A model generated the notes under the pieces. That model ran no database searches and was not told the DNA's origin. It saw only the letters and a list, made by a program, of their open reading frames with translations. Position numbers and translations under genes: made by a program. DNA of 64,000 bases from Nannocystis sp. RBIL2 (GTDB taxonomy: Bacteria; Myxococcota_A; Polyangia; Nannocystales; Nannocystaceae). The DNA is taken from positions 1,254,151-1,318,150 of the forward strand of contig NZ_JAPNJW010000002.1 in the NCBI RefSeq assembly GCF_026626745.1, in the 5' to 3' direction. Shown one piece after another: positions 10,501 through 55,838 of the stretch (positions are counted from its first letter, which is position 1; every line of letters begins with the position of its first letter).

Positions 10501-11916
10501 ATGGCCTCGGTCCCCGGACTCCGCGCGCTCATCACCCTCGCCTGGCCGATCGTGCTCGCACGCTCGGCGCAGTCGGTGATCAGCTTCAGCGACGCGGCGA
10601 TGGTCGCCCCGCTCGGCGACGACGCGCTCGCGGCCGCGACCACGGGCGCCATGAACGCGCTGGGGATCCTCGTGCTGCCGATGGGCATCACGTTCATCGT
10701 CCAGAGCTACGCGGCCCAGCTCGCCGGCCGGGGCGACCTCGCCAGCGCGCGCCGCTACGCCTGGTACGGCCTGTGCCTGTCCGCCCTGGCGTTGCTCGCC
10801 ACCATCGTCGCAATCCCGGCGATAGGCCCGCTGCTGTCGCTGACCGGCCACGAGCCGGCGGTGCGCGAGGTGATGGCCGAGTACATGGCGATCCGCATGC
10901 TCAGCACCGGCGTCGTCGTCGGCACCGAGGCGCTCGGCAACTGGTTCGCCGGCCTCGGCGACACCCGGGTGTCGATGCGCGCCAGCCTGGTCGCGATGGT
11001 CGTCAACATCGGCCTCAACTGGGTCCTGATCTACGGCAACCTCGGCGCCCCCGCGCTCGGCGTCCAGGGGGCCGCGTGGGCCAGCGTGTTCGCCAGCGTG
11101 GCCGGCTTCGCAGTGTGCTGCCACGCCTTCTGGCGCGCGCGCGGCCGGCGGGCGATCGACCCGGCGACGCTCGGCCCCGTCGAGCACCCGGTACCTGACC
11201 TTCCGGACAGCTCGGATGGCCGCCTCAACCTGCGCGAGTTCTCGCGGATGATGCGGTTCGGCCTGCCGAACGGCCTCAACTGGTTCCTCGAGTTCGCGGC
11301 CTTCCTGATCTTCATCAACCTCGTGGTCGCCGAGCTCGGGACCGTCGCGGTCGCGGCGCTGATGGCCGTGGTGGCCGTCAACTCCGTCTCGTTCATGCCC
11401 GCCTTCGGCCTCGGCTCGGCCGGCGCGGTCCTGGTCGGCCAGGCGATCGGCGCCGGCCGCCACGACCACGTGCCGCGGATCGTGGTGCGCACCTTCTCGG
11501 TCGCCGCCGTCTGGCAAGGCCTGGTCGGGCTGCTCTACTTCACGTTCCCGGTGCCGCTGATGATGATCTTCGCCCGCGACGAGATCGAGACGTCCGGCGA
11601 GGTCGTGAACCTCGGCGCCCAGCTGCTGGCGATCAGCGCGGTGTGGCAGCTGCTCGACGCCACCGTGATCACTATCAACGAGGCGCTGCGCGCCGCCGGC
11701 GACACCGCCTGGCCGCTGATCCTCCGGATCTCGCTCGCCTGGGTGATCTGGCTGCCCCTGGCCTGGCTGACCGTGTTCGTCTGGGACGGCGGCGCGGTCG
11801 CGGCGACGTGGAGCATGTGCGTGTACATGGTGTTCCTGGCCCTGGCGATGGTGCTCCGCTTCCGCACCGGCGCCTGGCGCCGCATCGACCTCACCGGCCG
11901 CGGCGCGACCGGCTGA
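10501..11916 (+). CDS. MATE family multidrug efflux transporter
   Basis: 12-TM-like hydrophobic profile, MATE-like N-terminus (LAWPIVLARSAQSVISFSDAAMVAPLG); ORF 9868..11916 trimmed to ATG 10501, upstream part is R-rich and overlaps pgi. Confidence 0.8.
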   Translation: MASVPGLRALITLAWPIVLARSAQSVISFSDAAMVAPLGDDALAAATTGAMNALGILVLPMGITFIVQSYAAQLAGRGDLASARRYAWYGLCLSALALLATIVAIPAIGPLLSLTGHEPAVREVMAEYMAIRMLSTGVVVGTEALGNWFAGLGDTRVSMRASLVAMVVNIGLNWVLIYGNLGAPALGVQGAAWASVFASVAGFAVCCHAFWRARGRRAIDPATLGPVEHPVPDLPDSSDGRLNLREFSRMMRFGLPNGLNWFLEFAAFLIFINLVVAELGTVAVAALMAVVAVNSVSFMPAFGLGSAGAVLVGQAIGAGRHDHVPRIVVRTFSVAAVWQGLVGLLYFTFPVPLMMIFARDEIETSGEVVNLGAQLLAISAVWQLLDATVITINEALRAAGDTAWPLILRISLAWVIWLPLAWLTVFVWDGGAVAATWSMCVYMVFLALAMVLRFRTGAWRRIDLTGRGATG

Positions 11917-14494: not shown

Positions 14495-14530
14495 ACCCGC
14501 TGGCCGGGCTGCGCGACAAGCGGCGCCACC

Positions 14531-14557
14531 GGATGTCCCGAGGGACCTGTCCCGAAG
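14531..14557. repeat. two-unit palindromic element (ggatgtcccgagg gacctgtcccgaag)
   Basis: same family as the other arrays; between meaB start and small gene stop. Confidence 0.6.
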
Positions 14558-14694
14558 TTCAGACGCGCATTACGCCGCGTCTGCCGCGCTCGCAGCGGGC
14601 ACGACGCGAGCCGCCGAGACAGCGCGCCTGCCGACGCGACAGGCGCCGGGACGCGAGGTGAAAAGCTCGATCGGACTGCGGGCCGCGACCGGCG

Positions 14695-16874: not shown

Positions 16875-17474
16875 GTGTTATGGTGCGCGCCGATGGCGTT
16901 TTGGTCCCGCAAGGAGCGACCCGCACCGTGTCCGAGCTGCGACGCGGCGCTGGACATCGGCCTCGTCAAGGACGGGCAACCGACGTGCCCGGCGTGCGGG
17001 CAAGCGCTGGTGCCGGTGCGCGTCGCCGGCTTCTGGCGTCGCCTCGCCGCCGCGGTGGTCGACGCCGCGATCCTGCTCGTCACCGCCGGGCCGCTGCATC
17101 TCGGGCTGCAGCGCGTGATCGGCGATGCCAGCCCGGTGCGCGGCGCCTTCTCGTGGGCCGGCCTGCTCCAGCTCTTGACCGTCGAGCCGCTCGAGATCCT
17201 GGTGTGGCTGGCGCCGCTCCTGGTGATGGTCGCGTTCTACTTCGTGCTCTTCATCGCCCTGTCCGGAAGGACACCCGGGCAGAAGCTCACCGGGATCCGC
17301 GTGGTCCACCGCGCCGGCGGCAAGGTCGGTCCGGTGCGCGCGACGGTGCGTTTCGCGGGCACCGCCGTCGGCCTGGTACCCGGCGGCCTCGGCTCGCTAT
17401 GGATGGCCTTCGACCGCGAGAAGCGGGCCTTCCACGACTACCTGACAGGCACCTACGTCGTGAGGGAACAGTGA
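16875..17474 (+). CDS. RDD family membrane protein with N-terminal zinc-ribbon (CPSC...CPAC)
   Basis: GTG 16875 with GGAGG 9 nt upstream (alt ATG 16893); RDD motif region RFAGTAVGLVPGGLGSLWMAFDREKRAFHDYLTGTYVV. Confidence 0.7.
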   Translation: MLWCAPMAFWSRKERPAPCPSCDAALDIGLVKDGQPTCPACGQALVPVRVAGFWRRLAAAVVDAAILLVTAGPLHLGLQRVIGDASPVRGAFSWAGLLQLLTVEPLEILVWLAPLLVMVAFYFVLFIALSGRTPGQKLTGIRVVHRAGGKVGPVRATVRFAGTAVGLVPGGLGSLWMAFDREKRAFHDYLTGTYVVREQ

Positions 17475-20400
17475 GCCTCCTCCTGCGCCACCTCGAAGCC
17501 AACGGCCCGCTCTCGCGCGCCGATCTCGAGGCCGCGACCCGGCGGCAGCAGCTGGCCGGCGGCAGCCTCGACACCGCGATCCTCGAGCTCGGGCTGATGA
17601 CCCCGCTGCAGCTCGACGCCCTGCTGCAGAGCGCCTGCGGCCTCCCCGGCGCGCCGGTGCGGCTGCTCGAGCGCGGGCCGACCCGTCCCTGGGAACATGT
17701 CCCGAGAGACCTGGTCGACATCGGCTGGGCCATGCCGCTCGCGCAGGAGGACGGCCGGCTGATCGTCGCCGTCCACCCCGACCTGCCCGACGCCAAGCTC
17801 GGCCAGCTCTACCGCATGGTCCGCGGCTTCTACCCGGTCGTCGCGCCCGAGTGCTGCCTGGCCAAGATCGCCGCCGAGCGCACCGGCTCGATCCTCGCCC
17901 CGCGCTACGCGCTGATCCTGCTCGACTACCTCGAGGCGCTGCGCACCGCCTCGATCACCATCAGCCTGATGCCGGGCGCCGCCGAGCCGCGTCCGAGCGA
18001 AGCGGCTGTCCCTGCGGACAGTCGGGCGGAAGACGCACCTGTCCCAACGGACAGGCAGACGACGGAGGTCCGCGCCGAGGCAGCTGTCCCTGGGGACAGG
18101 CCGACATCCGAGGCGCGCGAGGGGGCACCTGTCCCCGCGGACAGGCAACCGGCCGATGCCCGGGGCGCAGATGCAGCTGTCCCTGCGGACAGGTCGCACG
18201 CCGACGCGCGACCGGAGCCGTCCGGCGCAGACACGCCGGTCGACGCTCGCATCGCCGACGCGCCGAGCGCCGGCGATCGCCAGGCGACCAGCTCGGACCC
18301 GAGCCAGGGATCCGACACCCCGGCCCGTCGCACCGAGGCGCCCACCGCCACCCACGGGCTGGAGGTCGAGGCCGGAGGCCCTGCCCTCGATTCGTCGCGG
18401 ACCGGTGGGTCTGCGAGCGACCAGGTCGCCGCTGCTCATGTGGAAGCTCCTGTCCCTGCGGACAGGTCCGCCATCGACGCGAAGGTAGACGGCACCGAGG
18501 CCAGGCCTGCCGCCGCCCCGAGGGCCGACGCCGCGGACGCCACGCAGACCACCCCTGTCGCGGCGGACGGGACGACCGCGGGCGTGCGACCGGTGTCGCT
18601 GGCCGACGCGCTGCTGGCCGACGTACCTGTCCCCTCGGACAGGCAGATGGCCGGCCCGCGCCCGGCGGCGATGTCCGGGCCGAACACCGCGGCGCGCGCG
18701 ACGGGTTCGCCGTCCGGCGCGCCACCGCCGTCGGAGGCCGGCTCGCCGCGGACGGGCACGCCCGACGACGCCGCCGCGACGGCGCCTGTCCCCGGGGACA
18801 GGCCGGGCGACTCGCCCGCACCTGCCCTCAAGGACAGCCGCAACGAGGCGATTGACGCGGACCGAGCTCGCCCGGCGAACGGTTCGACGCTCACCGCGGG
18901 TTCCTCCCCCGCAGCGCCGACTCTCGCCGATTCGCCGACATCCGACTCCGACGCCCGCGCCCACGCGCCTCGCACCTCCGACGAGCTCGCCGCAGACCGT
19001 GCGGCCGCCGCGACCAGCAGTTCCGCGACGACCCCGGCCGCCACACCTGTCCCTCAGGACAGCCGGGCCGCAGCATCGACGCCGCCGAGCGTCAACGCCG
19101 CGCCCGCACCTGTCCCCGCGGACAGCTCCGCTTCAAACGCCTCGGCCCTGCCCTCCGGCCGCGAGCCCGCGCGTGACGCTGCACCTGTCTCTGAGACCAG
19201 GTCGCCCCAGCTCGACACCCCGAGCCACGCCGCTGCGGGGCGCCGGACCGAGACCGCCCCCACGCCTGCCGCCGCGGCGAGCCGCCAGACGGCGGCGTAC
19301 GACTCGCGGGCGCCCGAGCCCGACCCGGCACCCGCCGCCAATCGGCCGCCCTCGACGCGGCCCTCGCCCGTCCCCGTCGCCCCGGACGCCCCGCTCATCG
19401 ACCCCGGCGGCTTCGAGGACGAGAACGCCTCGCTGGCGGCGATGGCCATCGCCCCCGACACGCCGCTCATCATCCTGCCGCCGGCGACCACGCCGCGACC
19501 GGTGACCCCAGCCCTCGGGGTGCCGATCTATTCCGACACCTCGTCTGGCAATTGGGACAGGCGCACCCTCGTCGGCATCCCGGTAGGCGTGGCGCCCGCC
19601 CCCGCCCCCGCCCCCGACAAGCCCGCGGCCGCGCACGGCCCCAGCAACGGCGTCGCTCGCCCCACGGCCGCATCGAGTCCACCTGTCCCTTCGGCCAGCC
19701 CCGCCGAGCCCGCGCCGAGCCCGCCCGTCCCTTCGGCCAGCCCCGCCGAGCCCGCGCCGAGCCCGCCTGTCTCTTCGACCAGCTCCTCGGAGGCCGCGCC
19801 GAGCGCCCCCGAAGCCGCGTCTGACGAGGATCTGGTCGAGTCGTCGACGCGCAAGCCGCCGGCCCTGCCGCAGCCGATGGTCATGACTCTGGCGCAGCGC
19901 CTCGACGCCGCCCGCGCCACTCTGGCCACCGCGCGCGAGCGCGACCGGATCACCGAGGCCCTGGTGCGGGCCGCGAGCCTGATCGCCCCGCGCGTGGCCC
20001 TGTTCGGGGTCAAGCGCGAGGGTCTGCGCGTCCTGGCCGCGCCCGGCAGCGCGCTGCGGATGTCCGAGGGTCTCGTCATCCCGCTGCCCGAGGGCGGCCT
20101 GCTCGATCGCGCAGTGTCGGGCCAGGGTCCGCTGCACCTCCTGATCGAGCCGAGCCTGTCGTTCGCAGTCGGCCAGCCGCTGGGGATCCCCTGCATCTTC
20201 GAGCCCGTGCTCGCCGGCGGCCGCACCGTGCTGATGCTCTACCTCGACCGCTCCGGCGTCGCCTTCGATCCGCGCGAGCGGACCGTCCTGCGCGAGCTGT
20301 GCGACACGGCCCGGCAGAGCCTCGAGGCGCTGCTGCGGCTGCTCGGCTGGGTGGTGCCCGGCGGCACGCCCGGGGCCGGCCCCGCCGACCGCACGCGCCC

Positions 20401-22780
20401 GTCGATCCGGCCGGCGACCCCGATCGTCACCGTCGACGAGGCCGACGCGCCGGCCACGACGCCACCTGTCTCTGCGGACAGCTCCGAAACCGAGCCGCCG
20501 TCCGGCGAGACCTCGGCCGAACCCGACGATTCCGAGCCGCCGCCGACCGCGAGCGGGGCGGCGAGTGAACCTGGCTTCGGGGACAGCAACAGCCTCGCCA
20601 GCCGGCTGCGCAGCCGCGGCAACCGCGGGCGCGCCGTCATCACCCTGAAGAACCCGATCCGCCGCGACGACCCGGCGACCGTGACGCCGCTGCCGGTCCG
20701 CGCCGAGAGCTCCGCGCTCGTGCGGGCCCAGACGCTCGCCGACGAGCCGCCGCCCCCGCCCGTCGACGAGCCGGAGTACGAGGACCTCACCGACGACCCC
20801 GAGGAGCTCGACAGCCCGCCGCCGCGCCGTGACGGCCCCGGCCTCGGCCTCGCGCCGGTCCCGGTGCCTCTCGGCCCCGAGAACGGCCAGGACAGCCCGC
20901 TCGTGGCCCGCTTCGCCGCGATGTTCACCAAGCCGCCGCTGCCGGCGGTGACGATCGACCTGTCCGATCGGCCCAATACCTTCGGACATGCGCGATCGGA
21001 CAGCCCCGAGGCGCCGCCAGCGAGCCCGCAGCCGGAGATGCCGGGCTGGATCGCCACCGCCGAGCCGTCAGGCATCGAGGACCCGCTGCCCGTGGCCGCG
21101 GCGCTGCGCTCGGCCGCGACCGCCGCCGAGGCCCGCGTCGACCACGATCCGGCGGCGACGCTGCCGGGCGCGCCGCGGGTCATGCTCGAGGAGACCACGC
21201 GGGCATCGACGCGCGACGAGTTCGACGAGTGGCCGCGCGCCGCCTCCGACACCCCGACCATCCTCGACCTCTCGCCGCCGCCGACCCACGAGCCGCTGCT
21301 GGTCGAGACCCGCGCCGCGCCCGACGCCAAGACCGTCCTCGACCTCCCGCGGGTCGACTCCCCGGTCCCGCCCGAGACCCTGATCCCCAACCTCGTCGCC
21401 CCGCCCGGCACGCCCGGCGCGGGCCGCCGTCGCCGCGCGAACGAGGCGGCCGAGGACGAGCCGGTATTGGTGATCCCGAAGACGCTGCGGCGCTCGGGCG
21501 GCCTCACCGCCACGCCGCACCCGATGGCCCGTCGCAGCGACCCCGACGAGCTCGAGGGCGGTCCGACGCTGACGATGCCGACCACTCTGATCGGCCCGCG
21601 CAGCGGCCGGCGACGCGGCAAGCACGACCCGCGCCCTGACTCCTCGTCCAGCGCCCTGACCATGCCCCGGCTGGTACGCGAGGCGGAGGCCGACGACGCC
21701 GCGGCCCAGTCGACTGCGAATGGGATCGCTCCTTCGGAACATGCCCCTGAGGACATGTCCCCGGCGACCGGTTCCAAAGCGCAGGTCGACGCGAGCGCGT
21801 CGCCAGCCGGCGCCGCCGAGGCGAGCGGGTCCGTCGCGGCCCCGCCGGCCGACGAGCGCCCTGCGGCCGACGAGCTGTCGAGCGAGGAGCCGGCCGCGGC
21901 CGCCGACGCCGCCCCCGGCGCGGCGCTCGACGACCGCGAGATCGACGCGGTGATCGAGGGCTTTTTGCAGAACCCGGCCGAGTGGACCAGCGTGTCGCGG
22001 CTGCGCGCGCTCGACGAGCGCGGCCTGGCCCGCCTGGCGGCGCGCTTCCCGGGGCCCATCGACCTCGCCAACGCGACCAACTTCCCGCCGCCGAGCGCTC
22101 ACGGCCCGCTGCTGCGCGCGTGCGTCGAGCTCGGCCACGCGGTCAGCCCGCACGTGCTCGCCCTGTTCGCCAGCGCACGGCCGCAGATCCGCTTCTACGC
22201 CGCGTTCCTGTTCCAGGAGCTGCGCGACCCGAAGTGCCTGCGGCCGCTCGGCGAGCTGGCGTTCGACTCCGACCCCGACGTGCGGCTGATCGCCACCCGC
22301 GTGCTCGAGTCCTACAGCCGCGTGCCTGACTTCGCAACGGTGGCCGCGGAGATCCGCGGCGAGCTCGAGAGCTCGGACCGCGACCGCCAGCTGCTCGCCG
22401 TCGAGGCCGCCGGCACCCTGCGCGACACCCTCGCAGTGCCGCGTCTCATCGACTTGCTGGCGGTCCGCGACAAGCACGTCCGCGAGGCCGCGCTCGAGGC
22501 CCTGTGCTCGATCACCGCCAAGCACCACGGCTACCGCGCCCAGCGCTGGCGGGCCTGGTACGCCGAGCACGGCCAGGAGCCGCGCATCGAGTGGGTCATC
22601 GACGGCCTGCGCCACCGCGACGAGGCCGTGCGCCGCTGGGCCGCCGACGAGCTGGCGCGGATCACCGGCCAGCGGATCCCGTTCCCGGCGGAGGGCGACC
22701 GCCGCAGTCGCGAGCTGGCCCTGCGCGCCTGGCAAGCCTGGTGGGACAGCAACCGCGAGGACTTCACCGCCGGTAGCTGA
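17471..22780 (+). CDS. giant multidomain protein (1769 aa): MshEN/T2SSE_N-like N-terminal domain, disordered Pro/Ala/Asp repeat region, GAF-like segment, C-terminal HEAT repeats
   Basis: GTG at 17471 overlaps RDD stop (GTGA) with GAGGGA 4 nt upstream; N-term SLDTAILELGLMTPLQLDALLQ resembles MshEN/GspE-N motif; aa 170-770 low complexity with xxAPVPxDRxx repeats; ITEALVRAASLIAPRVALFGV...MLYLD GAF-like; C-term PRLIDLLAVRDKHVREAALEAL HEAT-type repeats; ORF 16271..22780 upstream portion judged noncoding (overlaps rsmE). Confidence 0.7.
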   Translation: MSLLLRHLEANGPLSRADLEAATRRQQLAGGSLDTAILELGLMTPLQLDALLQSACGLPGAPVRLLERGPTRPWEHVPRDLVDIGWAMPLAQEDGRLIVAVHPDLPDAKLGQLYRMVRGFYPVVAPECCLAKIAAERTGSILAPRYALILLDYLEALRTASITISLMPGAAEPRPSEAAVPADSRAEDAPVPTDRQTTEVRAEAAVPGDRPTSEAREGAPVPADRQPADARGADAAVPADRSHADARPEPSGADTPVDARIADAPSAGDRQATSSDPSQGSDTPARRTEAPTATHGLEVEAGGPALDSSRTGGSASDQVAAAHVEAPVPADRSAIDAKVDGTEARPAAAPRADAADATQTTPVAADGTTAGVRPVSLADALLADVPVPSDRQMAGPRPAAMSGPNTAARATGSPSGAPPPSEAGSPRTGTPDDAAATAPVPGDRPGDSPAPALKDSRNEAIDADRARPANGSTLTAGSSPAAPTLADSPTSDSDARAHAPRTSDELAADRAAAATSSSATTPAATPVPQDSRAAASTPPSVNAAPAPVPADSSASNASALPSGREPARDAAPVSETRSPQLDTPSHAAAGRRTETAPTPAAAASRQTAAYDSRAPEPDPAPAANRPPSTRPSPVPVAPDAPLIDPGGFEDENASLAAMAIAPDTPLIILPPATTPRPVTPALGVPIYSDTSSGNWDRRTLVGIPVGVAPAPAPAPDKPAAAHGPSNGVARPTAASSPPVPSASPAEPAPSPPVPSASPAEPAPSPPVSSTSSSEAAPSAPEAASDEDLVESSTRKPPALPQPMVMTLAQRLDAARATLATARERDRITEALVRAASLIAPRVALFGVKREGLRVLAAPGSALRMSEGLVIPLPEGGLLDRAVSGQGPLHLLIEPSLSFAVGQPLGIPCIFEPVLAGGRTVLMLYLDRSGVAFDPRERTVLRELCDTARQSLEALLRLLGWVVPGGTPGAGPADRTRPSIRPATPIVTVDEADAPATTPPVSADSSETEPPSGETSAEPDDSEPPPTASGAASEPGFGDSNSLASRLRSRGNRGRAVITLKNPIRRDDPATVTPLPVRAESSALVRAQTLADEPPPPPVDEPEYEDLTDDPEELDSPPPRRDGPGLGLAPVPVPLGPENGQDSPLVARFAAMFTKPPLPAVTIDLSDRPNTFGHARSDSPEAPPASPQPEMPGWIATAEPSGIEDPLPVAAALRSAATAAEARVDHDPAATLPGAPRVMLEETTRASTRDEFDEWPRAASDTPTILDLSPPPTHEPLLVETRAAPDAKTVLDLPRVDSPVPPETLIPNLVAPPGTPGAGRRRRANEAAEDEPVLVIPKTLRRSGGLTATPHPMARRSDPDELEGGPTLTMPTTLIGPRSGRRRGKHDPRPDSSSSALTMPRLVREAEADDAAAQSTANGIAPSEHAPEDMSPATGSKAQVDASASPAGAAEASGSVAAPPADERPAADELSSEEPAAAADAAPGAALDDREIDAVIEGFLQNPAEWTSVSRLRALDERGLARLAARFPGPIDLANATNFPPPSAHGPLLRACVELGHAVSPHVLALFASARPQIRFYAAFLFQELRDPKCLRPLGELAFDSDPDVRLIATRVLESYSRVPDFATVAAEIRGELESSDRDRQLLAVEAAGTLRDTLAVPRLIDLLAVRDKHVREAALEALCSITAKHHGYRAQRWRAWYAEHGQEPRIEWVIDGLRHRDEAVRRWAADELARITGQRIPFPAEGDRRSRELALRAWQAWWDSNREDFTAGS
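18006..19783. repeat. 14 or more in-frame copies of the CCTGTCC-N4-GGACAGG palindrome (first five as 39-47 bp tandem units) inside the giant ORF
   Basis: e.g. ctgtccctgcggacag 18006, cctgtcccaacggacagg 18038, ctgtccctggggacagg 18084, cctgtccccgcggacagg 18128, ctgtccctgcggacagg 18177, 18440, 18627, 18784, 19048, 19109, degenerate 19185, 19682, 19727, 19766; further copies 20464 and 21731. Confidence 0.85.
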
Positions 22781-23972: not shown

Positions 23973-24034
23973 GGCGGCGGGACAACGCGCGTGGTGGGGG
24001 CCAGGTCTCGGGCGAGAGCTCGGCGCAGCGCGTC

Positions 24035-25078
24035 GTGAGGACCAGCGTATCCCCCGTGCGAGAAGCTTGGTATAGGGCCGGCGTGCCCCACGTCCCTGCC
24101 CTCCTCGCGCGACTGCGCGACGAGCCGCGCTACCTCGCCGCGCTGGCAGCGCTGCTGGTCGACGAGGTCCTCGCCGCGCCGGCGCGCCGCTTCATCGATC
24201 CCGTAAGGCTGACCCCGCTGATCGTCACCGGCCTGCAGGCCGTCGCCGCCGCGCCCGGCCACGCGGCGTGGCTCGAGCAGCGCCTCCGCGACGCGCTGGC
24301 ACGGATCCGGCCGCGGCAGGGCACGCTGCGCGCGCGGCTGCCCGGCGATCTGCTGCCGTTGCTGCGCACCGTGGTCCGCAGGCCCTACACGCCGAGCCGC
24401 ACGCTCGTGCGAGCCGTCGTCGATCAGGCGACCGTGCGCGACCTGTCGCGCACGATCCTCCACACCACGCTGCTCGACTTCGCCAAGAAGGTCGGCTCGA
24501 TCTTCCCGGACACCAGCAAGATCCCCGGCGCCGGCGTCACCTCGAAGCTGTTCGGCGTCGCCAAGGGTATGGCCTCCGTGGTCGGGCTCGACGCCTCGGT
24601 CGAGGACCGCGTGCGCGGCTTCGTCGACGGCGCCGTCGGCCGCGTGATCGACATGATCGTCGACCGCGTCAGCGACCCCAAGCACGCCGGCGAGGGCGCG
24701 GCCTTTCGCGCCGACGTGCTCGCCTCGCTGCTCGACCTACCCGAGTCGGCCGTCCACGCCGAGCTCGTCAAGCTCGACCCGGCCGTGGTCGCGGCCGACG
24801 TCCAGGCCGCGCTGGTCGCAGTCGCCGCCTGGGACCGCCTGCCCGCCGAGGTCGAGGCGGTGCTCACGGAGGCGGTCGCCAGCCTCGGCGACGCCACTAT
24901 CGGCGAGCTGCTGGCCGGCTCGGGCGAGGTCGAGGCGTGGCGCGGCGCGGTCGAGGCCGAGCTGCGCTACCACCTCGGCCACGGGCTCGCTGGCCCGCGC
25001 TTCGCCGCGTGGCTCGAGCACCTGGTCGCCGGGACATTGCCCGAAGAGCAGGTCTCTGCGGACAGCAGCGCGGAGTGA
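24035..25078 (+). CDS. hypothetical protein
   Basis: 347-aa ORF with balanced composition in mid/C-terminal part (TILHTTLLDFAKKVGSIFPDTSKIPGAGVTSKLFGVAKGMASVVG); no recognisable motif. Confidence 0.5.
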   Translation: MRTSVSPVREAWYRAGVPHVPALLARLRDEPRYLAALAALLVDEVLAAPARRFIDPVRLTPLIVTGLQAVAAAPGHAAWLEQRLRDALARIRPRQGTLRARLPGDLLPLLRTVVRRPYTPSRTLVRAVVDQATVRDLSRTILHTTLLDFAKKVGSIFPDTSKIPGAGVTSKLFGVAKGMASVVGLDASVEDRVRGFVDGAVGRVIDMIVDRVSDPKHAGEGAAFRADVLASLLDLPESAVHAELVKLDPAVVAADVQAALVAVAAWDRLPAEVEAVLTEAVASLGDATIGELLAGSGEVEAWRGAVEAELRYHLGHGLAGPRFAAWLEHLVAGTLPEEQVSADSSAE

Positions 25079-25089
25079 GCCGTTGCCTG

Positions 25090-25112
25090 CGCCTCAGGAC
25101 ATGTCCTGAAGC
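25090..25112. repeat. single GGACATGTCC palindromic element in convergent intergenic gap
   Basis: cctcaggacatgtcctgaag. Confidence 0.6.
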
Positions 25113-25223
25113 GCAGGTTCGATGCCACGCTTGCGGAGGCGATGCGTGCTCGCAACGGGCCGCCCCCGCGGGCTCACCTGGGCACGAGCCCGGCTGTGCC
25201 CCCTCAGCGCGCAGCGGGCACGT

Positions 25224-27623
25224 TCACACCCCTGCCGCCTGCGCGACCTCGCCGAGCGGGCGGGCGCGGCCGATCGCCGGGTCGGCGGCGGCAAGATCTT
25301 CGTAGGCCTCCGGGTTGGCCTGCTTGAGCGCCCCGCCGGGGGCCTCGGCCGTGCCGATGAGCTCGCGGATGCCGCGCGCCGACCCGTAGTAGTTGCCGTT
25401 GTCGTGGTCCTCGTCGCTGTTGCAGCGGCGGATCAGCGAGCGGGACAGCCGCGGCAGCTGCAGCATGTCGAGCGCCATCTCCCACAGGCCGTCGACGAGG
25501 TTCTGGTCGGCCGGGAACTCGAGCAGCCCGGCCAGCAACAGCAGCAGCCCGGCGCGCTGGCCGAGCGGCGTGTCGAGCGGCGGCGCGTCGACGAGGTAGC
25601 CGAGGTCGATCGCCCGCCACCACGCCTCCGCGGCGACCAGCAAGCGCTTGAGCTCCTGCGCGCTGTGGCTGAGGTGGCTGTGAAACAGCACGTCGGCGGT
25701 CAGCGCGTCACCGGCCGGATCGCGGACGTAGCGGACCACCGCGGGCAAGCGGCCGAGCTCCCCGCGCGGGCCCTTGCCGGCCGGCACGTCGCGCGGCGGC
25801 TCGGCGCCGCTGAAGAAGCCGCCGGCCCGGAACGCGTAGAGGATCTCGGCCTGGCCCGGCAAGCTGTCCCAAAGTTCAGAGTACTGCGTGACCCGGTTGA
25901 GGCTGCCGGCGGCCCAGCCGAGCCCGCGCGCGGCCTCGCCGCTGATCTGCGACGGCGACGCGCCGGGGTCGCGCGGCACCGCCGAGTCCTTGAGGCTCTC
26001 GGCGATCTCGACCAGGCGGAAGTCGAGGAAGCCGTCGTAGTAGTCGGCCTTGCCGTCGCGGTTGATGTCCTGGTAGCGCGCCACCACCAGCGGGTGGGCC
26101 GGGCCGATGAACTGCACGAAGTCGGGCGTGCGGCTCTGGCGGTGGTGCCACTGGGCCTTGCGGATCCGCTGGTCGATCGCCGCGAAGTCCTCCTCCTCGG
26201 CGAGGCCGCGCAGGATCGCCACGAAGCAGTCGATGCCCTCGGAGGCCACCACCTTGTCGCCCTCGCCGGTGCGGAAGTAGGTCGAGTCCCAGCTCGAGAA
26301 GATGTCGGCGTCGGGGAACATACGGGCGATGGCGAAGCGCGTGGTCAGCCCGGCGCACTGGCAGTTCATCATCAGCTTGTAGCCGACCTGCTGGGTCTGG
26401 ATCGCCGAGGCGCGCATGTCGTAGGCGCCGAGGTTGGCGTGGCGACTGACGAGCAAGCCGGTGAAGAACTCCTGCGACATCTCGAAGTTCTCGTCGCGCG
26501 GCGAGGCCGAGCGGGCGAACAGCAAGAACTCGCGCCCGCCCTTGCCGACGAACGGCGCCTGCAGCACCACGTAGCCCTCGCCCCACAGGTTCGGCGGCTT
26601 CGGCGTGCCCTCGGGCGCGGCGATCTTGGTGAAGCCGTACTTGGTCTGCAGCAGCTCGACCTCACCGGGGGAGAACTCGGACGCCGAGGCCAGGGCGAAC
26701 CGCCACGGCCCGGTCAGCGTGGCGTACGGCGGGGCCTGCCGCGACAGCGAGCGCAGCAGCGCCTGCGCGCGCGCCTGCTGCTCGGTTCGCAGGGCCGGGC
26801 CGCGCAGCGACAGCAGCGAGATGGCGTGCGCCCGCAGCTCGCTGCGCCCGCCGGGACCGGCCTCCTCGTCGACCAGTCGGAAGATGCGTCCGGCGGCTGC
26901 GTCGGCGGCGGCGCGGAACTCGGGATCCTTGAGCACCGTGGCGACCACGTGCGACAGCACGGTCAGCGCCGCCGAGCGCAGCTGCACCGCATCGTCGACC
27001 GCCCCGTGCGGGCCTGCGGGCGCCGCCGCGGTCAGCACCGCCTCGACCTGCTGCTGCAGCGCCCCCGCCTGCGCCGGCGTCAGCTGCTCGGTCCGCAGCG
27101 GTTCGTCGGGGAAGAACGCGCTCGGCGGGAACAGGCACTCGAAGCTCGACGTCCGCCGCGCGGAGATCCAGCGCGCCGCAGCGACGAACACCGGCAGCGC
27201 TGACATGTCCTTCGGGGCAGGTCCGGCCGCGTCGCCGGCCAGCTCGCCGGACGGCAGCAGGAACAGGGGAGCCGCGCCGTGGATGCCGGCGGTCAGGTCG
27301 AGCGCCGCCGCCTGCGGCTCCGGCCTGTCCCGAAGACCCTGTCCCGAGAGACCGGCGAGGCGCTGGCGGACGGCGCGGCGGCCGGGGAAGTCGAGCAGGA
27401 TCTTGTGCCCGACCGACGATCGCAGCAGCGCCTTGTCGGCCGCCGAGGGTTCGGCGACGAGGGCGACGTGGTAGCCGCGCTCGCCGGTGAGGTGGATCTG
27501 CACGCCCGGGCCGCTGCGAGCGCGCTCGAAGCTGCGGGTGGCCGTGCTGCCCGACTTGACCAGGACGGCGGCGAAACGCGTGGCCGCGGCGCCACGCCCG
27601 ATCCGAATCTCGATCTCCTTCAT
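25224..27623 (-). CDS. large hypothetical protein (799 aa)
   Basis: ATG at 27623 preceded by GGAGGG 4 nt upstream (ORF track extends to 27668); contains DINRDGKADYYDG Ca-binding-like loop; N-terminal 150 aa carries in-frame palindromic elements at 27199-27224 and 27324-27350. Confidence 0.6.
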   Translation of the reverse strand: MKEIEIRIGRGAAATRFAAVLVKSGSTATRSFERARSGPGVQIHLTGERGYHVALVAEPSAADKALLRSSVGHKILLDFPGRRAVRQRLAGLSGQGLRDRPEPQAAALDLTAGIHGAAPLFLLPSGELAGDAAGPAPKDMSALPVFVAAARWISARRTSSFECLFPPSAFFPDEPLRTEQLTPAQAGALQQQVEAVLTAAAPAGPHGAVDDAVQLRSAALTVLSHVVATVLKDPEFRAAADAAAGRIFRLVDEEAGPGGRSELRAHAISLLSLRGPALRTEQQARAQALLRSLSRQAPPYATLTGPWRFALASASEFSPGEVELLQTKYGFTKIAAPEGTPKPPNLWGEGYVVLQAPFVGKGGREFLLFARSASPRDENFEMSQEFFTGLLVSRHANLGAYDMRASAIQTQQVGYKLMMNCQCAGLTTRFAIARMFPDADIFSSWDSTYFRTGEGDKVVASEGIDCFVAILRGLAEEEDFAAIDQRIRKAQWHHRQSRTPDFVQFIGPAHPLVVARYQDINRDGKADYYDGFLDFRLVEIAESLKDSAVPRDPGASPSQISGEAARGLGWAAGSLNRVTQYSELWDSLPGQAEILYAFRAGGFFSGAEPPRDVPAGKGPRGELGRLPAVVRYVRDPAGDALTADVLFHSHLSHSAQELKRLLVAAEAWWRAIDLGYLVDAPPLDTPLGQRAGLLLLLAGLLEFPADQNLVDGLWEMALDMLQLPRLSRSLIRRCNSDEDHDNGNYYGSARGIRELIGTAEAPGGALKQANPEAYEDLAAADPAIGRARPLGEVAQAAGV

Positions 27624-27716
27624 CGCACCCTCCGAAGGCGCGAGCGTAACACGCTGCCCCGACGTCACCGGACGCGCGCTCCCACGCGCGCGAGCGCGGC
27701 GGCGCCGGAGAAACGC

Positions 27717-27737
27717 GACATGTCCTCAGGGACAGCC
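27717..27737. repeat. GACATGTCC-TCAG-GGACAGC composite palindromic element 3' of the sigma-54 activator gene
   Basis: gacatgtcctcagggacagcc. Confidence 0.6.
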
Positions 27738-27787
27738 AGTGAGCTCGGTGAACCGTGGTCACGCGCCGCGGTTCGATGTTCTGCGCC

Positions 27788-29206
27788 CTACTTCAGCGCG
27801 CCGCGGTGCGCGTGCGATTCGGGTGGCACGGGAGGCATCCCCGTCTGCGGAGCGACGCGGTATTCGTTGAGGCGGTACTGAATCTTGCGCGGCGAGATCC
27901 CGAGGATCTTCGCGGCCTTGCTCGTGCTGCCGCCGACGTGCTCGAGCGTCCGCAGGATCGCGTAGCGCTCGATCTCTCGCAGCGACGCGCCCGGGATCAC
28001 GGGCGCCGAGTCGTCGCCGCGCATCTTCGACATCAGCTCGCGCGGCAGGTCGCGCGGCTCGATCTCCGCCCCGCGCGCGAGCACCACCGCCCGCTCGACG
28101 CTGTTCTCGAGCTGACGGATGTTGCCCGGCCAGTCGCACCCGAGCAGCACGCCGAGCGCTCGCTCGCTGAAGCCGACCATCGGTCGGTGCGCCTGGGCGG
28201 CGAACTGCCGCAGGAAGTGCATCGCCAGCAGCGGGATGTCGTCCCGGCGCTCGCGCAGCGACGGCATGCGCAGGCTGACCACGTTGAGGCGGTAGTACAG
28301 GTCCTCGCGCAGCTTGCTGCCCTTGGCCGCGCCGAGGTCCTGGCTGGTCGCCGCGATCACGCGGACATCGGCCTGCAGCGGCTCGCTGTCGCCGACGCGG
28401 CAGAACGCCCGGTCCTGCAGGAACCGCAGCAGCGCCGCCTGTACGCCCGCCGGCAGCTCGTCGACGTCGGCGAGGAAGAGCGTGCCGCCGTCGGCCTCGA
28501 CGAGCCGGCCCTCGCGCAGCACCGCCTCGCCGTCGCGCACCCCGAACAGCTCGCGGGCGCACGCCTCGTCGGTGAAGCCGCTGCATTGCAGGCTGACGAA
28601 CGGGCCGCGGCGGCCGCTCCACTGGTGGATCAGGCGCGCCAGGTGTTGCTTGCCGGTGCCGCGTTCGCCGGTGACGAGCACCGACACCGGCGAGTCGGCG
28701 ACCTGGCGCGCGAGGCCGAGGAGGTCGCGGAACACCTTCGACTGGCCGATGATGCCGGCCCGCTGGTCGGCGCGCTGGCTCTCGAGCGCCGAGCGGAGGT
28801 GCCGGGCCTCGCGTTGCAGCGCGCGGTGTCGCAGGACCCGCTGCAGCACGATGAGCAGCTGCGGCAGGTCGACGGGTTTGCTGAGGTAATCGTCGGCGCC
28901 GAGGTGGAGCGCCTCGACGGCGCCCTCGACCGAGCCGAAGGCAGTCATCACAACGACCGCGACGTCAGGGTAGAGTTCACGAAGTTTGGATATGAGCTCG
29001 AGGCCGTTGAGGCCGGGCATCTTGACGTCGGTGATGACGACATCCGGCTCCCACTGGTCGATGCGTCCGAGCGCCTTGTATCCGTCGGCGGCGGACTGGA
29101 CTTCATAACTTTCCTCGCGCAGCAGCTCGCTGAGTGCAGAGCGTGCGCTTGACTCGTCATCGACCACCAAAATTCGGGTCGGCCTGGTCTCTTCAAATTT
29201 CGTCAT
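27788..29206 (-). CDS. sigma-54-dependent response regulator (NtrC family: REC + AAA+ + HTH)
   Basis: ILVVDDE...D..MPGLNG receiver, GESGTGK Walker A, GAFTGA sigma-54 contact motif variant ([11 protein letters not shown] region), C-terminal HTH; ATG 29206 with GGAGGT 7 nt upstream. Confidence 0.8.
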
Positions 29207-29248
29207 AGGCGGTACCTCCGCGGGGGCTTCGCCTACTCTGCGGGCGGA

Positions 29249-29266
29249 AGATGCGCGGGTGTAATG
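29249..29266. promoter_or_regulatory. near-perfect palindrome TTTGCGCG-N2-CGCGCAAA about 45 nt upstream of the activator gene start; two TGGCACG motifs lie 75-110 nt further (29339, 29357)
   Basis: read directly; candidate operator or terminator hairpin. Confidence 0.3.
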
Positions 29267-29369
29267 CATACTTTGCGCGCTCGCGCAAACCCGCGACCCC
29301 CGCCCACGACGTTTCTCCTATCGTTGCGAGATTTTCATGTCTGGCACGAAAGGCGCACTGGCACGGCGT

Positions 29370-30917
29370 TCAGCCAGTCGGCGCGTCATTCGGCGGCGGC
29401 GCCTCGCCCTCGCGAGGTGCCTCGGCCGGCGCCTGGCCGTCCGGCTGGCCTTCGGGCGGGACCTGACCGTCGCCCTGGCCTTGGCCCTGACCACCCTCGG
29501 GCTGCTGCACTTCCTCCATCGCCGGCGGCAGCGGTGGCGGCGGCAGTTGCTCGGCCGGGCGCTCGTCTTGCCGGGCCTCGGGCTCCGGCTCGGGCGGCGG
29601 CGGCTGGGTCGACGGCGTCGGCGGCGGCTCGGCCGGACGCATCTCGGAGTCAGGCGTCTTCGTCGGCTCGCGGTCCGTCCCGCCGGTCTCGCCGGCGCCG
29701 ACGCTCGGCTGCTCCGGCCCGTTGTTGCGCTCGAGCGCGTCCTTTTCCTCGGTCTTCTTCGTCGAACGCGACTTGGTGCGCGCCTTCTTGGCCGCCTCGC
29801 GCTCGGCGTTCTTCTGCCGCCGCTCGAGCATCCGCTCCTCGGTGGTCTTGGTCTTGACGCCCATGAAGCGCGGCTTGCCGACGGTGCCCCGCAGCTTGAA
29901 GCCGAGCCAGCCTTCGTCCGGCGGATCCATCCGCGACGACGGGCCAGCAGTCTGCACCGCGAAGCGCAGCGTCTCGCTCTTGTCTTGCAGCGCCTGCGTG
30001 ACCAGCAGCTTCATCTGGAACGCGAACTCGGACTTCGAGAACGGATCCTTGAGCGGCATGTCGCCGGTGACCTCGAGCTCGATGTCCGCGCTCTTGGTCT
30101 TGAAGTCCTCGACGGTGATCCGGCCCTCCGACACCTTCAGCTTGCCGACCAGGGTGCCGAGGTCGATCTCGGGGATGGTGATGCCCTTGGCGGTGATGCC
30201 CGACGAGCCGGGGATGAACAGCAGCTCCTGGCCGTCACCGATCAAGCACGAGGCACACTCGAGCGAGACCGACCCCTCGGCCTTCTCGAACAGGTTCTCC
30301 GGCATCGTCATGTCGACGTGGAGGGCGAACAGGCCGCGCAGCGGAGCGCCCAGCGCCTGCTGCAGCTTCGGCACCGAGCCGAGCGGCAGCTCGGTGACCT
30401 CGATCTTGATGCTCGACTCGCTGCTGCTGCGCGCGTACTCGGCGTGGATCGGCGCCTCGTCGAGCACCGTGTCGACCTCGACATCGATGTTGCCGAGCAG
30501 CAGGTAGCCCAGGATCGAGAAGTCGACGTCGACCGCGTCGAGCACCATCTGGTGCGGGATCTGGCCCGGGTGCGACGGCGCGTACGTCCACGTGACGTTG
30601 TAGAGCGTCGCGCTGCCCCACGGCCGCACCGACATGTCCTCGATGTCGATGAGGTAGCCGGCCTGGCGCGCCTGGTGGCCGATCCGCCACGCGAGCGCGC
30701 GGGTCGGCAGGCTGATCCAGATGAAGGCGAAGAACACGAACACGGCCAGGAACACCCAGCCGGCGGAGCTGCGGAGGCGCCGCGAGAACAGGCGCATGCG
30801 ATCGCCGAAGCCGCCGATCGGGGCGGCCGGCGCGACCATCGTGCCGCTCGCGGGCGGGGCCGCGGGCAGGTCGCCGCCGCGGCGGAGGTTGGCGAGGTTG
30901 GGCAGGCGGATCTTCAC
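29370..30917 (-). CDS. gspN: type II secretion system protein GspN-like
   Basis: last gene of gsp operon; GTG start with AGGAGGG upstream overlapping gspM stop; single N-terminal TM (WVFLAVFVFFAFIWISL), C-terminal low-complexity PEPE tail. Confidence 0.6.
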   Translation of the reverse strand: MKIRLPNLANLRRGGDLPAAPPASGTMVAPAAPIGGFGDRMRLFSRRLRSSAGWVFLAVFVFFAFIWISLPTRALAWRIGHQARQAGYLIDIEDMSVRPWGSATLYNVTWTYAPSHPGQIPHQMVLDAVDVDFSILGYLLLGNIDVEVDTVLDEAPIHAEYARSSSESSIKIEVTELPLGSVPKLQQALGAPLRGLFALHVDMTMPENLFEKAEGSVSLECASCLIGDGQELLFIPGSSGITAKGITIPEIDLGTLVGKLKVSEGRITVEDFKTKSADIELEVTGDMPLKDPFSKSEFAFQMKLLVTQALQDKSETLRFAVQTAGPSSRMDPPDEGWLGFKLRGTVGKPRFMGVKTKTTEERMLERRQKNAEREAAKKARTKSRSTKKTEEKDALERNNGPEQPSVGAGETGGTDREPTKTPDSEMRPAEPPPTPSTQPPPPEPEPEARQDERPAEQLPPPPLPPAMEEVQQPEGGQGQGQGDGQVPPEGQPDGQAPAEAPREGEAPPPNDAPTG

Positions 30918-31489
30918 GACTCACCCTCCTCGCCGCCGGGCACCGGCGCCGGCTCTTCGGGCTTCTGCAGCTGCCACGTGGCGAGCTCGACCTCGGCGTT
31001 GAGGCGGTCCTCGAGCGCCGAGGGCGAGCGCAGCATCAGGCGCTCGACGAACAGGATGTTGCCCGGCTGCCCCTCGAGCTTGGAGAGGAAGTTCAGCAGC
31101 TCCTCGAGCGCGACGTTGCGGACCTCGAACGCGACCACGCGCTTGGTCAGGCCCTTCTCCTCGTCGACCACCATCGCCTGCCGCTCCTCCTCGCCGCGCA
31201 GGGTGCCCGTGACGAGGTCCTTCTGCGCCTCCTCGAGGAGGATCGAGAACACGATCGGCTGGGCGCTGGCGATCCTGCCCTCGCGCGCCTCCTTCTCCTT
31301 CTTCTTGGTGTCGTACGCGGTGCCCTTGGTGCGCACGAGGACGAGGGCCTCGCGCAGCTCGGCGATCTCGGCGCGGGCCGTGTCGAACGAGCTCTTGCGC
31401 ATCATGTAGAGCACGCCGACCGCGGTGACGAAGAACACCAGCATCAGCACGCCGAGCAGCGCCCGCTCGCGCGGGTTGAAGCGGGACAT
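30914..31489 (-). CDS. gspM: type II secretion system protein GspM-like
   Basis: ATG 31489 (MSRFNPRERALLGVLMLVFFVTAVGVLYMM single TM), position between gspL and gspN; R-rich 5' extension of ORF rejected. Confidence 0.6.
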   Translation of the reverse strand: MSRFNPRERALLGVLMLVFFVTAVGVLYMMRKSSFDTARAEIAELREALVLVRTKGTAYDTKKKEKEAREGRIASAQPIVFSILLEEAQKDLVTGTLRGEEERQAMVVDEEKGLTKRVVAFEVRNVALEELLNFLSKLEGQPGNILFVERLMLRSPSALEDRLNAEVELATWQLQKPEEPAPVPGGEEGES

Positions 31490-31518
31490 GAACCCGAACA
31501 GGGTAGTTTCGATGGCGC

Positions 31519-33273: not shown

Positions 33274-33313
33274 GTGCGGCAGTCCTTGCGGTTGAAGATG
33301 GGAGCCATGGAGA

Positions 33314-34684: not shown

Positions 34685-34696
34685 GGCGTGAACCTT

Positions 34697-36180: not shown

Positions 36181-36181
36181 G

Positions 36182-37174: not shown

Positions 37175-37215
37175 GACGATCCTCGCGGGAGAGAACGATC
37201 GGGGCTAGCGCCCGA

Positions 37216-37662: not shown

Positions 37663-37688
37663 GGGTGGTCTCTCCTGAGGTACTCGGG

Positions 37689-38927: not shown

Positions 38928-38933
38928 GCTTCG

Positions 38934-40781: not shown

Positions 40782-40800
40782 CTCAGACAACAGGATAGCT

Positions 40801-44267: not shown

Positions 44268-44276
44268 CGCTCTCCG

Positions 44277-45686
<1,410 letters not shown>

Positions 45687-45855
45687 GGGCGCTCGAGTCG
45701 AACCCGCGGTGTGCAAGCCGGGGTCCTCGGTGAAAAGCGAATGATTCTAAGGCAACTCCTGGAGCCAGAACGAGGCTGTCACGCGCAATTGTCAGGCCGT
45801 CCGAGGCGGGATGCCAAAATGGCAATCGCGGCCCTCGCGCCCAACTCCCGGCGCC

Positions 45856-50375: not shown

Positions 50376-50400
50376 CTGGCGCGGAGGTGGCGAGGAAGAT

Positions 50401-55817: not shown

Positions 55818-55838
55818 GGCGAAGGCCCGCCCGGGGCC

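Follow-up and report, generated by a model that had tools for sequence, protein, structure and literature searches.

An iterated palindrome, CCTGTCC-N4-GGACAGG, read in-frame in a giant gene of Nannocystis and present in the surrounding DNA

Introduction

Rickettsia palindromic elements (RPEs), reportedly described by Ogata and colleagues in 2000, are about 100-150 bp long and are regarded as insertions. The uptake signal sequences (USS) of the Pasteurellaceae and the DNA uptake sequences (DUS) of the Neisseriaceae number thousands of copies, many of them in open reading frames (ORFs), where the protein is weakly constrained at that position and the frame is tolerated; pairs of DUS in inverted orientation can act as terminator hairpins. 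Repetitive extragenic palindromes (REPs) are imperfect palindromes of 20-40 bp, present in many copies per genome and mainly outside genes, and their repeats flank a cognate REP-associated tyrosine transposase (RAYT) gene of the Y1/HUH class. One of their ends bears a conserved tetranucleotide, GTAG or CGTC (PMC3733652), and both intragenic REPs and RPEs are palindromic repeats that can be translated in-frame (Di Nocera et al. 2013, PMC3733652). The highly iterated cyanobacterial palindrome HIP1, GCGATCGC (Xu, Lawrence and Durand 2018, PMC5861425; Elhai 2015, PMC4390886), is conserved at orthologous sites within ORFs, which has been taken as evidence of selection at the DNA level, while its function is unknown (PMC5861425). 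Here, we analyze a palindrome of two arms around a free centre, CCTGTCC-N4-GGACAGG (the dyad), in a 64,000-nucleotide stretch of Nannocystis sp. RBIL2 (contig NZ_JAPNJW010000002.1, positions 1,254,151 to 1,318,150, hereafter the window), where it recurs within a giant gene of 1769 codons, in other genes and between genes.

Results

The dyad recurs in a single frame within a giant gene

The window is GC-rich (67-77% GC per 2 kb). The giant gene and its most palindrome-rich segment are as follows:

17471-22780, plus strand: giant gene, 1769 codons from an ATG at 17471, delimited by its ORF and by GC content at third codon positions (GC3)
17990-19880, plus strand: disordered linker 1 of the giant protein, about 600 residues, containing 13 copies of the palindrome in addition to degenerate ones

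The giant protein shares 99% identity with OV203_34725 of Nannocystis sp. ILAH1 and 60-87% with its orthologues in N. pusilla, N. punicea, N. bainbridge and N. radixulma. From the N-terminus, it comprises a GspE_N-like domain, disordered linker 1, a middle domain, disordered linker 2 and C-terminal HEAT repeats (Pfam HEAT_2/HEAT match). The 1769-residue ORF had been pointed out in an earlier note made from the sequence alone; the frame is indeed open throughout, but the orthologues are annotated from an internal GTG, at 17546 in the window, giving 1745 codons. Gene boundaries outside the syntenic block are GC3-based ORF calls.

A position-frequency table built from 45 independent copies gave the consensus R-CCTGTCC-N4-GGACAGG-Y, in which the arms are fixed, the 4-nt centre is free and the flanks are unconserved beyond +/-2 nt. 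The spacer between the arms measures 4 nt without exception, and the centres of the 7-mer arms lie 11 bp apart. The centre favours T/C...A/G and shuns A...T in the same 45 copies. Half-sites are mostly found together, 31 of the 39 CCTGTCC or GGACAGG 7-mers being paired as dyads with the 4-nt spacer, and the predicted hairpin energy of the copies is about -12 kcal/mol.

Compared to dinucleotide shuffles of the window, the over-representation was strong at every stringency: 5 exact matches to CCTGTCC-N4-GGACAGG, all between 18038 and 18802 (vs. 0.01 expected), 27 matches in 64 kb to the core CTGTCC-N4-GGACAG with at most one mismatch (vs. 0.23), and 34 copies with at most two mismatches (vs. 0.42). 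The giant gene holds 14 copies with at most two mismatches, 13 of them within 18005-19699 and one at 20465, and more degenerate copies at 19184, 19724, 19766 and 21740. All are read in the same frame, CCT GTC CNN NNG GAC AGG, to give x-V-x-x-D-x, which bears out the earlier count of at least 14 palindromes in one frame. The dyad occupies 18 nt, or six codons, and its fixed positions are stop-free in all frames; it can thus sit in disordered segments and leave the reading frame intact. The copies in the giant gene, all on the plus strand, are:

18005-18193: five palindromes of 18 nt each, at 18005, 18038, 18083, 18128 and 18176, spaced 33, 45, 45 and 48 bp apart
18035-18193: 45-bp tandem array (Tandem Repeats Finder, TRF: period 45, 3.5 copies) encoding 15-residue repeats, A-(A/P)-V-P-x-D-R
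18449-18466: exact copy CCTGTCCCTGCGGACAGG, reading APVPADRS
18554-18571: decayed copy CCTGTCGCGGCGGACGGG, reading TPVAADG; the aligned copy is perfect in L003 and L004
18626-18643: positionally conserved copy, V-P-V-P-S-D-R-Q-M-A-G-P-R-P-A-A-M-S-G-P
18785-18838: two copies 36 bp apart, at 18785 (exact) and 18821 (2 mismatches)
19046-19126: two copies of the CCT...AGC type, at 19046 and 19109, P-V-P-x-D-S
19184-19201: degenerate copy CCTGTCTCTGAGACCAGG, reading APVSETR
19674-19811: 42-bp tandem array of a decayed palindrome, CCTGTCCCTTCGGCCAGC (TRF, 3.3 copies), reading PPVPSASPAEPAPS
20465-20482: copy in linker 2, CCTGTCTCTGCGGACAGC, reading PPVSADS; L001 and L002 have it unchanged, L003 and L004 as a variant
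21740-21775: decayed double unit, CATGCCCCTGAGGACATG + ATGTCCCCGGCGACCGG, reading HAPEDMSPATG

The TRF period of 45 agrees with the tandem units of about 15 residues previously proposed for the first five copies, the measured spacings being 33-48 bp. At the 21740 site, the orthologues have HV(L/P/V)EDM, encoded as CATGTCC-N4-GGACATG.

The rare codons belong to the palindrome

The codons CCT and AGG had been put forward in the earlier note as rare in this DNA and as kept by the palindrome rather than by the protein. Over the window's 32 remaining ORFs (12,990 codons), CCT indeed accounts for only 2.6% of Pro and AGG for 1.7% of Arg codons, with GCA at 2.0% of Ala and ACA at 1.9% of Thr. Within the elements, CCT encodes 17/22 Pro and AGG 7/7 Arg, a count that is partly circular because the search pattern itself dictates these two codons. 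The base 5′ of the element is mostly A, which creates the additional rare codons GCA, ACA, GTA and CCA.

Two further comparisons bear on whether the peptide could account for these codons. When the giant protein was recoded 300 times with the codon usage of the window, a mean of 0.65 copies was obtained (maximum 3), vs. 14 observed; at one mismatch or fewer, 0.017 copies were expected and 9 observed. Constraint on the protein alone is thus insufficient to explain the codons, as had been claimed. In the seven orthologous genes, PV..DR motifs use CCT in 23/23 cases, together with AGG (21) or AGA (2), while D-R dipeptides elsewhere in the same genes use CGC or CGG in 70/87. PVPxDR-type motifs are palindromic in 58 of 61 instances. 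CCT, AGG and GCA, the rare codons in question, are the element's own sequence.

The arms outlast the residues that they encode

The window was compared to the giant gene and its 10-kb flanks from six other Nannocystis genomes. The seven orthologues together have 65 copies with the core TGTC[CT]-N4-[GA]GACA, and 65/65 are in frame 0. The outer encoded residues are exchanged while the dyad persists, from P..R (CCT/AGG) to A..S (GCT/AGC) or H..M (CAT/ATG), the full range being P, A, H, T or S at position 1 and R, S or M at position 6. The alignment of orthologues, proposed earlier as a check, therefore shows a palindrome that is kept while the residues change.

The peptide around the copy at 18626, V-P-V-P-x-D-R-Q-x-A-G-P-R-P-A-A-M-S-G-P, is the best-conserved stretch of the linker. 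The palindrome is retained there in 6/7 genomes, with the loops CCTC, CATC, CAGC, CCGC, CGGC and CGGG. N. punicea has P-I-P-A-D-R encoded as CCG ATC CCC GCC GAC CGG, the palindrome having given way to common codons in what is apparently a derived loss, one in seven. The presence of common codons where the palindrome has been lost fits with the palindrome having held the rare ones. A peptide kept in ordinary codons with no palindrome, the pattern that the earlier note had named as evidence against its own claim, was thus found once, in N. punicea, and in none of the other six genomes.

Within linker 1, the arms were more conserved than the other linker positions in both of the closest species (94.0 vs. 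88.0% identity, p=0.02, in L001; 93.5 vs. 83.7%, p=4e-4, in L002), with no increase in the identity of the loops. Rates from more distant species are biased, since the aligner anchors on the palindromes. Across 15 syntenic genes, 5/6 rare codons lying in palindrome arms were identical in all six orthologues vs. 47/188 rare codons outside, counted at positions where the amino acid is conserved. Copies aligned over the 7 genomes occupy a common position in all or most of them, and among these no clean presence/absence indel of one dyad unit was seen.

Two copies in folded domains leave protein length unchanged

17258-17275, plus strand: copy in the folded RDD domain of the gene upstream of the giant gene, C CTG TCC GGA AGG ACA CC, reading L-S-G-R-T
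45577-45594, minus strand: copy in the receiver domain of a sigma-54 activator, at codon 41, reading N-M-S-V-R-T-A with the rare codons GTT and ACA

The RDD copy, with the codons CTG TCC GGA AGG ACA CCC, contains three rare codons in succession. It is the same in 7/7 Nannocystis genomes except for one loop base in L004 (GGA to GGG), whereas synonymous sites on either side of it vary. ALSGRTPGQK is part of a conserved RDD-domain motif; homologues as distant as 32% identity share it, with the residues G, T and G unchanged and no difference in length. In two related metagenomic genomes, L125 and L126, whose protein is 69% identical, the same ALSGRTPGQK is encoded in common codons by the non-palindromic CTG TCC GGC CGC ACG CC(C/G); both genomes carry the dyad family elsewhere in their DNA. 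The direction of the change cannot be polarised because the outgroup L127 has CGG ACA. The copy in the receiver domain likewise involves no length change compared to the Pfam model (111 residues on 111 positions). Since neither copy alters protein length, both differ from their homologues synonymously only, and insertion is excluded at the RDD site.

The dyad lies in non-coding DNA and in all three frames

Copies are found between convergent genes or genes of the same direction, at some gene starts and, in about half of the cases, inside ORFs, where all three frames are used. The readings PVPxD[RS], LSxxTG and CPxGQ are all present in independent Nannocystis loci. Copies of the window outside the giant gene include:

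11194-11211, plus strand: copy in a MatE-like gene, the aligned position being occupied in 7/7 genomes
27719-27736, no strand assigned: intergenic copy that follows the stop of a sigma-54 activator and precedes the gene for a 799-residue protein, which runs in the same direction
35376-35393, minus strand: copy over the likely (inferred) start codon of a pseudopilin-like gene, ATG TCC TCC AGG ACA GCC
45923-46387, minus strand: six copies, all in the disordered tail at the C-terminus of an N6_N4 DNA methylase-like ORF (45856-47469)
50403-50503, no strand assigned: three copies in a 135-bp spacer between convergent genes, the first with an 11-12-bp stem (-18.9 kcal/mol)

Further intergenic copies lie at 57375 and at 59857/59907. 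At 27719, the arms are kept in 7/7 genomes while the loop and flanks have diverged; the copies at 11194 decay at arm positions that differ by lineage. At other loci, some copies have UUCG loops and T-rich tails (L107).

The six copies in the methylase-like ORF all read (L/M)-S-x-x-T-(G/A), a frame unlike that of the giant gene. The earlier note had placed copies in the coding tails of several genes. This holds for the C-terminal tail of the methyltransferase, albeit in a different frame, but not for the others: the copy in the second activator is the receiver-domain one at codon 41, and the 799-residue protein, gspK and phaC have theirs in the N-terminal part, at codons 90-140, 13 and 123, respectively. 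The methylase-like ORF (45856-47469, minus strand) has long disordered extensions at both termini, the C-terminal tail being about 170 residues long, and this tail may have arisen through read-through into a 3′ repeat cluster.

The use of several frames is clearest in a metagenomic relative, L222, where a single 2205-codon ORF has arrays in different frames, encoding WPEGQV, about twenty GLS(E/G)GTG units, GDMSxGTG and eight AVPEDRS units. This TPR-like ORF (L222:329-6943, minus strand) contains 30 palindromes; 18-bp units placed back to back give hexapeptides (GLSGGT) and 27-bp units give AVPEDRSxx. A second metagenomic relative, L144, has GELSAGTG arrays in a 1791-codon ORF. In a Nannocystis metagenome-assembled genome, seven tandem dyads (L037:324-490) alternate between 27- and 21-bp spacings; the minus strand would read N-P-V-P-A-D-S repeats, and there is no confident ORF around the array.

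Several variants of the dyad were also observed. The copy at 35376-35393 reads M-S-S-R-T-A-R-Q-R-G-L-S-L-I-E-I-L-V, and variants in which one arm contains ATG (CATGTCC) fall on likely start codons (M-S-S-x-T-...) both there (minus strand) and at L118:6181; a hairpin at such copies would take in the start codon. At 25086-25117, in a convergent spacer directly past the stop of the gene for a 331-residue protein, lies a near-perfect palindrome of 32 bp, CCTGCGCCTCAGGACAT/ATGTCCTGAAGCGCAGG, with the half-sites in the opposite order (GGACA-TGTCC central). The orthologous spacers have variants that combine this reversed arrangement with ordinary dyads. Pairs of partly overlapping units, 21 bp apart, occur at 14525-14563 (ATGTCCCGAGGGACCTGTCCCGAAG) and 27317-27355 (CCTGTCCCGAAGACCCTGTCCCGAGAGACC) and are kept in the orthologous loci. 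An extra gene of 103-108 residues, located between the genes for the 331- and 799-residue proteins (L002:17869-18195, L004:17706-18017, L005:17285-17599), contains a perfect dyad, [AG]CTGTCC-TC[CG]G-GGACAGG; it is uncalled in L001, L003 and L006, and has no match in the window.

The dyad is dense in Nannocystis and its relatives

A scan of one genome per species (185,579 species) gave at least 118 matching stretches; among those listed, 13 came from Nannocystis or Nannocystaceae and the remainder were scattered single matches. These 13 loci (102.6 kb) contain 38 copies, 25 of them beyond the match by which the locus was ascertained, or about 1 per 4 kb. The other high-GC loci among the listed matches have 26 copies in 184 kb, about 23 of which are the ascertaining matches and about 3 additional. 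Outside the giant gene, the window has 14 copies in 58.7 kb, the same density as the independent loci (about 1 per 4 kb). Scaled up from about 170 kb, such a density would mean roughly 3,000 copies per 12-13-Mb genome. The outgroup locus L127 has no dyad copy in 20.6 kb. In the metagenome scan, most hits were single chance matches and only about 10 loci belonged to the dyad family. A viral collection gave 96 stretches, all but one with a single match, apparently at chance level; a phage link is therefore absent. Searches of the literature on palindromes, REPs and RAYTs in Nannocystis and other myxobacteria did not find a description of the dyad.

Tandem duplication and the apparent growth of the linkers

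The orthologue in the outgroup locus L127 (778 residues) retains the three folded blocks, with 45% (N-domain), 51% (middle domain) and 52% (HEAT) identity. Its first inter-block gap is about 15 residues long vs. about 600 in the window protein, and its second about 130 vs. about 515. The array at 18035-18193 has 3.5 units in the window vs. 7.5 in L002, and the more distant homologues in L125 and L126 have 13 and 18 in-frame copies, respectively, with array units spaced 27 to 45 bp apart. All orthologues maintain one open frame across linkers of varied length (1673-1936 residues in total). The single frame used in the giant gene is best explained by tandem duplication of a palindrome-bearing unit rather than by many independent events, and part of the linker of the giant protein appears to have grown in this way.

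Surroundings of the giant gene

The cumulative GC skew of the window reaches its minimum at about 24000-30000 and rises afterwards, and over the same region the genes change from mixed orientation to lying mostly on the minus strand. A switch related to replication could lie behind this, or else a local effect of gene strand. A long run of minus-strand genes (29370-44276), followed immediately downstream by PilM/FtsA-like genes in the orthologous loci, contains GspK-like and pseudopilin-like genes together with two sigma-54 activators; it has the look of a cluster for type II secretion or of a type IV pilus-like one, beside the giant protein with its GspE_N-like N-domain. On the side of the RDD gene, PrmA is called at 61 residues in the complete genome of N. 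pusilla (L001:8479-8664) and an RsmE-like gene between it and the RDD gene is uncalled. In the other genomes, these genes encode 321-324 and 229 residues, respectively. The short call may reflect a frameshift, a pseudogene or an assembly error.

Discussion

The palindromes of the giant ORF can be understood as in-frame copies of a lineage-specific, highly iterated palindrome of Nannocystis and the Nannocystaceae. The earlier claim of a constraint at the level of DNA or RNA is supported by the copies in non-coding DNA and in three frames, by the resampling, by the conservation of the arms and by the RDD site. We consider it probable, though well short of certain, that the dyad is an iterated palindrome of the REP or HIP1 kind, held by constraint on the nucleotides and likely read as a stem-loop. 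Within the giant gene, it has multiplied by tandem duplication (the 45- and 42-bp arrays, which vary in copy number between species), apparently adding to the linker of about 600 residues, and its arms would be held through purifying selection or through sequence-specific drive from whatever reads the dyad; selection and drive cannot be fully separated with the present data. Our best guess is that the reading takes place, as in REPs, on a stem-loop (about -12 kcal/mol) formed by the transcript or by single-stranded DNA, with intergenic copies serving as 3′-end or intercistronic hairpins and intragenic copies being carried along while the constraint persists. The REP-like placement of intergenic copies, past stop codons and between convergent or same-direction genes, is in support of a stem-loop (PMC3733652), and so are the hairpin energies given above and the UUCG loops and U-rich tails of some copies.

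Several observations weigh against this interpretation. Base-pair covariation, examined at the outer arm positions and across the loop, was nil at the outer positions in 139 unique copies (97 had been tested first) and weak beside the core (p=0.06, same copies), so the hairpin and a motif read on duplex DNA are not separable on this basis. On the sense strand, G-U pairs were not in clear excess over A-C mismatches (35 vs. 26), and a hairpin is accordingly not demonstrated. The preference of the centre for T...A and its avoidance of A...T suggest recognition of sequence rather than of a loop, and the GTAG or CGTC tag is lacking in the 45 independent copies. The samples are also small: the clean rate comparison comes from the two closest species, rare-codon retention was counted on six in-arm codons and the densities derive from about 170 kb, less than a whole genome. 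We nonetheless place the REP-like stem-loop ahead of a HIP1-like duplex motif, and neutral selfish DNA behind both.

The second of these would have an abundant dimeric protein that binds or modifies DNA read the dyad on the double strand, with a role in nucleoid organisation, methylation or the like, and with most copies arising in situ by point mutation under selection. We regard it as possible but rather doubtful. The fixed arms, strict 4-bp gap and free centre count in its favour, and the 11 bp between arm centres correspond to about one helical turn, as far as we can infer. The arms also vary independently, with no covariation, and the T...A preference at the centre points the same way, as do the RDD and receiver-domain copies, which leave protein length unchanged, and the conserved ORF sites, which recall those of HIP1 (PMC5861425). 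However, this explanation comes without a candidate protein. The intergenic copies lie past stop codons and often have an extended stem, a UUCG loop and a U-rich tail, which suggests hairpins in RNA, and tandem arrays of 18-45 bp are unexpected for a motif spaced along the chromosome.

If the dyad were instead a selfish or neutral repeat, a mobile element resembling REPs or MITEs (miniature transposable elements with inverted repeats) that settles in tolerant sites and expands by slippage, the rare codons would be a mere footprint that nothing maintains. Array copy number does differ among species, linkers and inserts are large and lineage-specific, point mutations have decayed the copies at 11194, 18554 and 19674-19811 by lineage, and Rickettsia is among the bacteria known to have palindromic elements in-frame (PMC3733652). 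This scenario nevertheless seems unlikely to us, given that aligned copies are co-located across 7 genomes with no clean one-unit indel, that the arms outconserve their neighbours and the rare codons persist despite strong codon bias, and that the folded-domain copies are not insertions. A terminal tag, a target duplication and a conserved flank are all lacking.

Selection on the protein, with PVPxDR as a short linear motif and shared codons inherited through recent duplication of one ancestral unit, would explain why 65/65 orthologue copies are in one frame. In N. punicea, the site at 18626 also keeps P-I-P-A-D-R-Q after losing its palindrome, and at least that segment may therefore matter as protein too. 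As a general account, however, it is very improbable: the dyad encodes LSxGTG and CPxGQ elsewhere and also sits in non-coding DNA, dispersed copies match over 18 nt only with different flanks, the encoded residues shift while the dyad stays, and nearly all motif instances (58/61) are palindromic. An artefact of GC-rich, Pro/Ala-rich coding sequence, which has the low complexity of the linker in its favour and nothing else, can be dismissed in view of the shuffles (0.01, 0.23 and 0.42 expected vs. 5, 27 and 34 observed), the codon-aware resampling (0.65 vs. 14) and other high-GC genomes that lack the motif.

Other element classes were considered and rejected. A CRISPR-like array would need a longer period and unique spacers; a Chi-like or uptake-like single site does not fit with half-sites that are seldom alone (31/39 in dyads), and no link between the dyad and competence is known. 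Restriction sites are avoided rather than enriched, and no anatomy supports a retron or an attC-like site. Intrinsic terminators, GC-rich hairpins with a U-run and a stem of variable sequence, were rejected because the stem sequence of the dyad is fixed and 1/10 terminator-like sites is a dyad copy: a scan of 45000-64000 gave ten sites vs. 5.3 in shuffles, with a dyad copy at 45579-45592, within the coding sequence of the receiver domain, and one site adjoining the copy at 50403. Rfam at gathering thresholds gave no match in the whole window.

More tentatively, the Nannocystaceae could have an undescribed sequence-specific system that reads CTGTCC-N4-GGACAG, in which genome-wide selection overrides codon bias even within conserved folded domains and arrays seed new disordered segments in proteins that are otherwise conserved. 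If true, a nucleic-acid signal would be driving the birth of coding sequence, hundreds of residues long and in any of three frames. The locus provides a testable case in which a constraint on the nucleic acid sets codon choice, one peptide having rare codons with the palindrome and common codons without it, and it links a repeat to the growth of a disordered linker (about 15 residues in the outgroup vs. about 600 here). It also points to a reader of a dyad that would number, by extrapolation, roughly 3,000 copies per 12-13-Mb myxobacterial genome. On the practical side, dyads confound gene calling, codon-usage models and the annotation of repeat proteins in Nannocystis, a genus mined for natural products, and heterologous expression or recoding of its genes would erase them.

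Comparison with known systems

The dyad resembles REPs and bacterial interspersed mosaic elements (BIMEs) in being a short palindrome in very high copy that occurs singly, in pairs and in clusters. Like REPs, it is found in high copy number (27 vs. 0.23 expected), with intergenic copies downstream of ORFs, between convergent or same-direction genes, and some copies translated within ORFs. Unlike REPs, it measures only 18-20 nt and has no GTAG or CGTC tag, about half of its copies are in ORFs, aligned copies keep fixed positions across the genus and some differ from homologues synonymously in conserved domains. There is no transposase within the 64-kb window.

With RPEs, the dyad shares the property of being an in-frame palindromic repeat that adds peptide to protein-coding genes without destroying the protein. 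It differs in its length of 18 nt, in its tandem arrangement into repeats of 6 to 15 residues, in its use of three frames and in its unrelated sequence. Furthermore, dyads in folded domains entail no change in length, and it is the linker arrays that are expansions.

Compared to USS and DUS, whose unit is an asymmetric single site, the dyad has paired half-sites (31/39). It is like HIP1 in being clade-specific, over-represented by orders of magnitude and present in both coding and non-coding DNA, and in that its sites outconserve neighbouring or synonymous sites, as far as small samples can tell (two close species, 6 in-arm rare codons). HIP1, however, is an uninterrupted 8-mer with ties to GATC and CGATCG methyltransferases, whereas the dyad has two arms of 6-8 nt and a free 4-nt centre, can form a hairpin of -12 kcal/mol and builds disordered segments through arrays. 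The type of element is thus a known one, with intragenic REPs, Rickettsia RPEs and HIP1 as its precedents; what is distinctive here is the 6-8 + 4 + 6-8 architecture, together with tandem arrays that make disordered segments in any frame and synonymous-only differences in folded domains.

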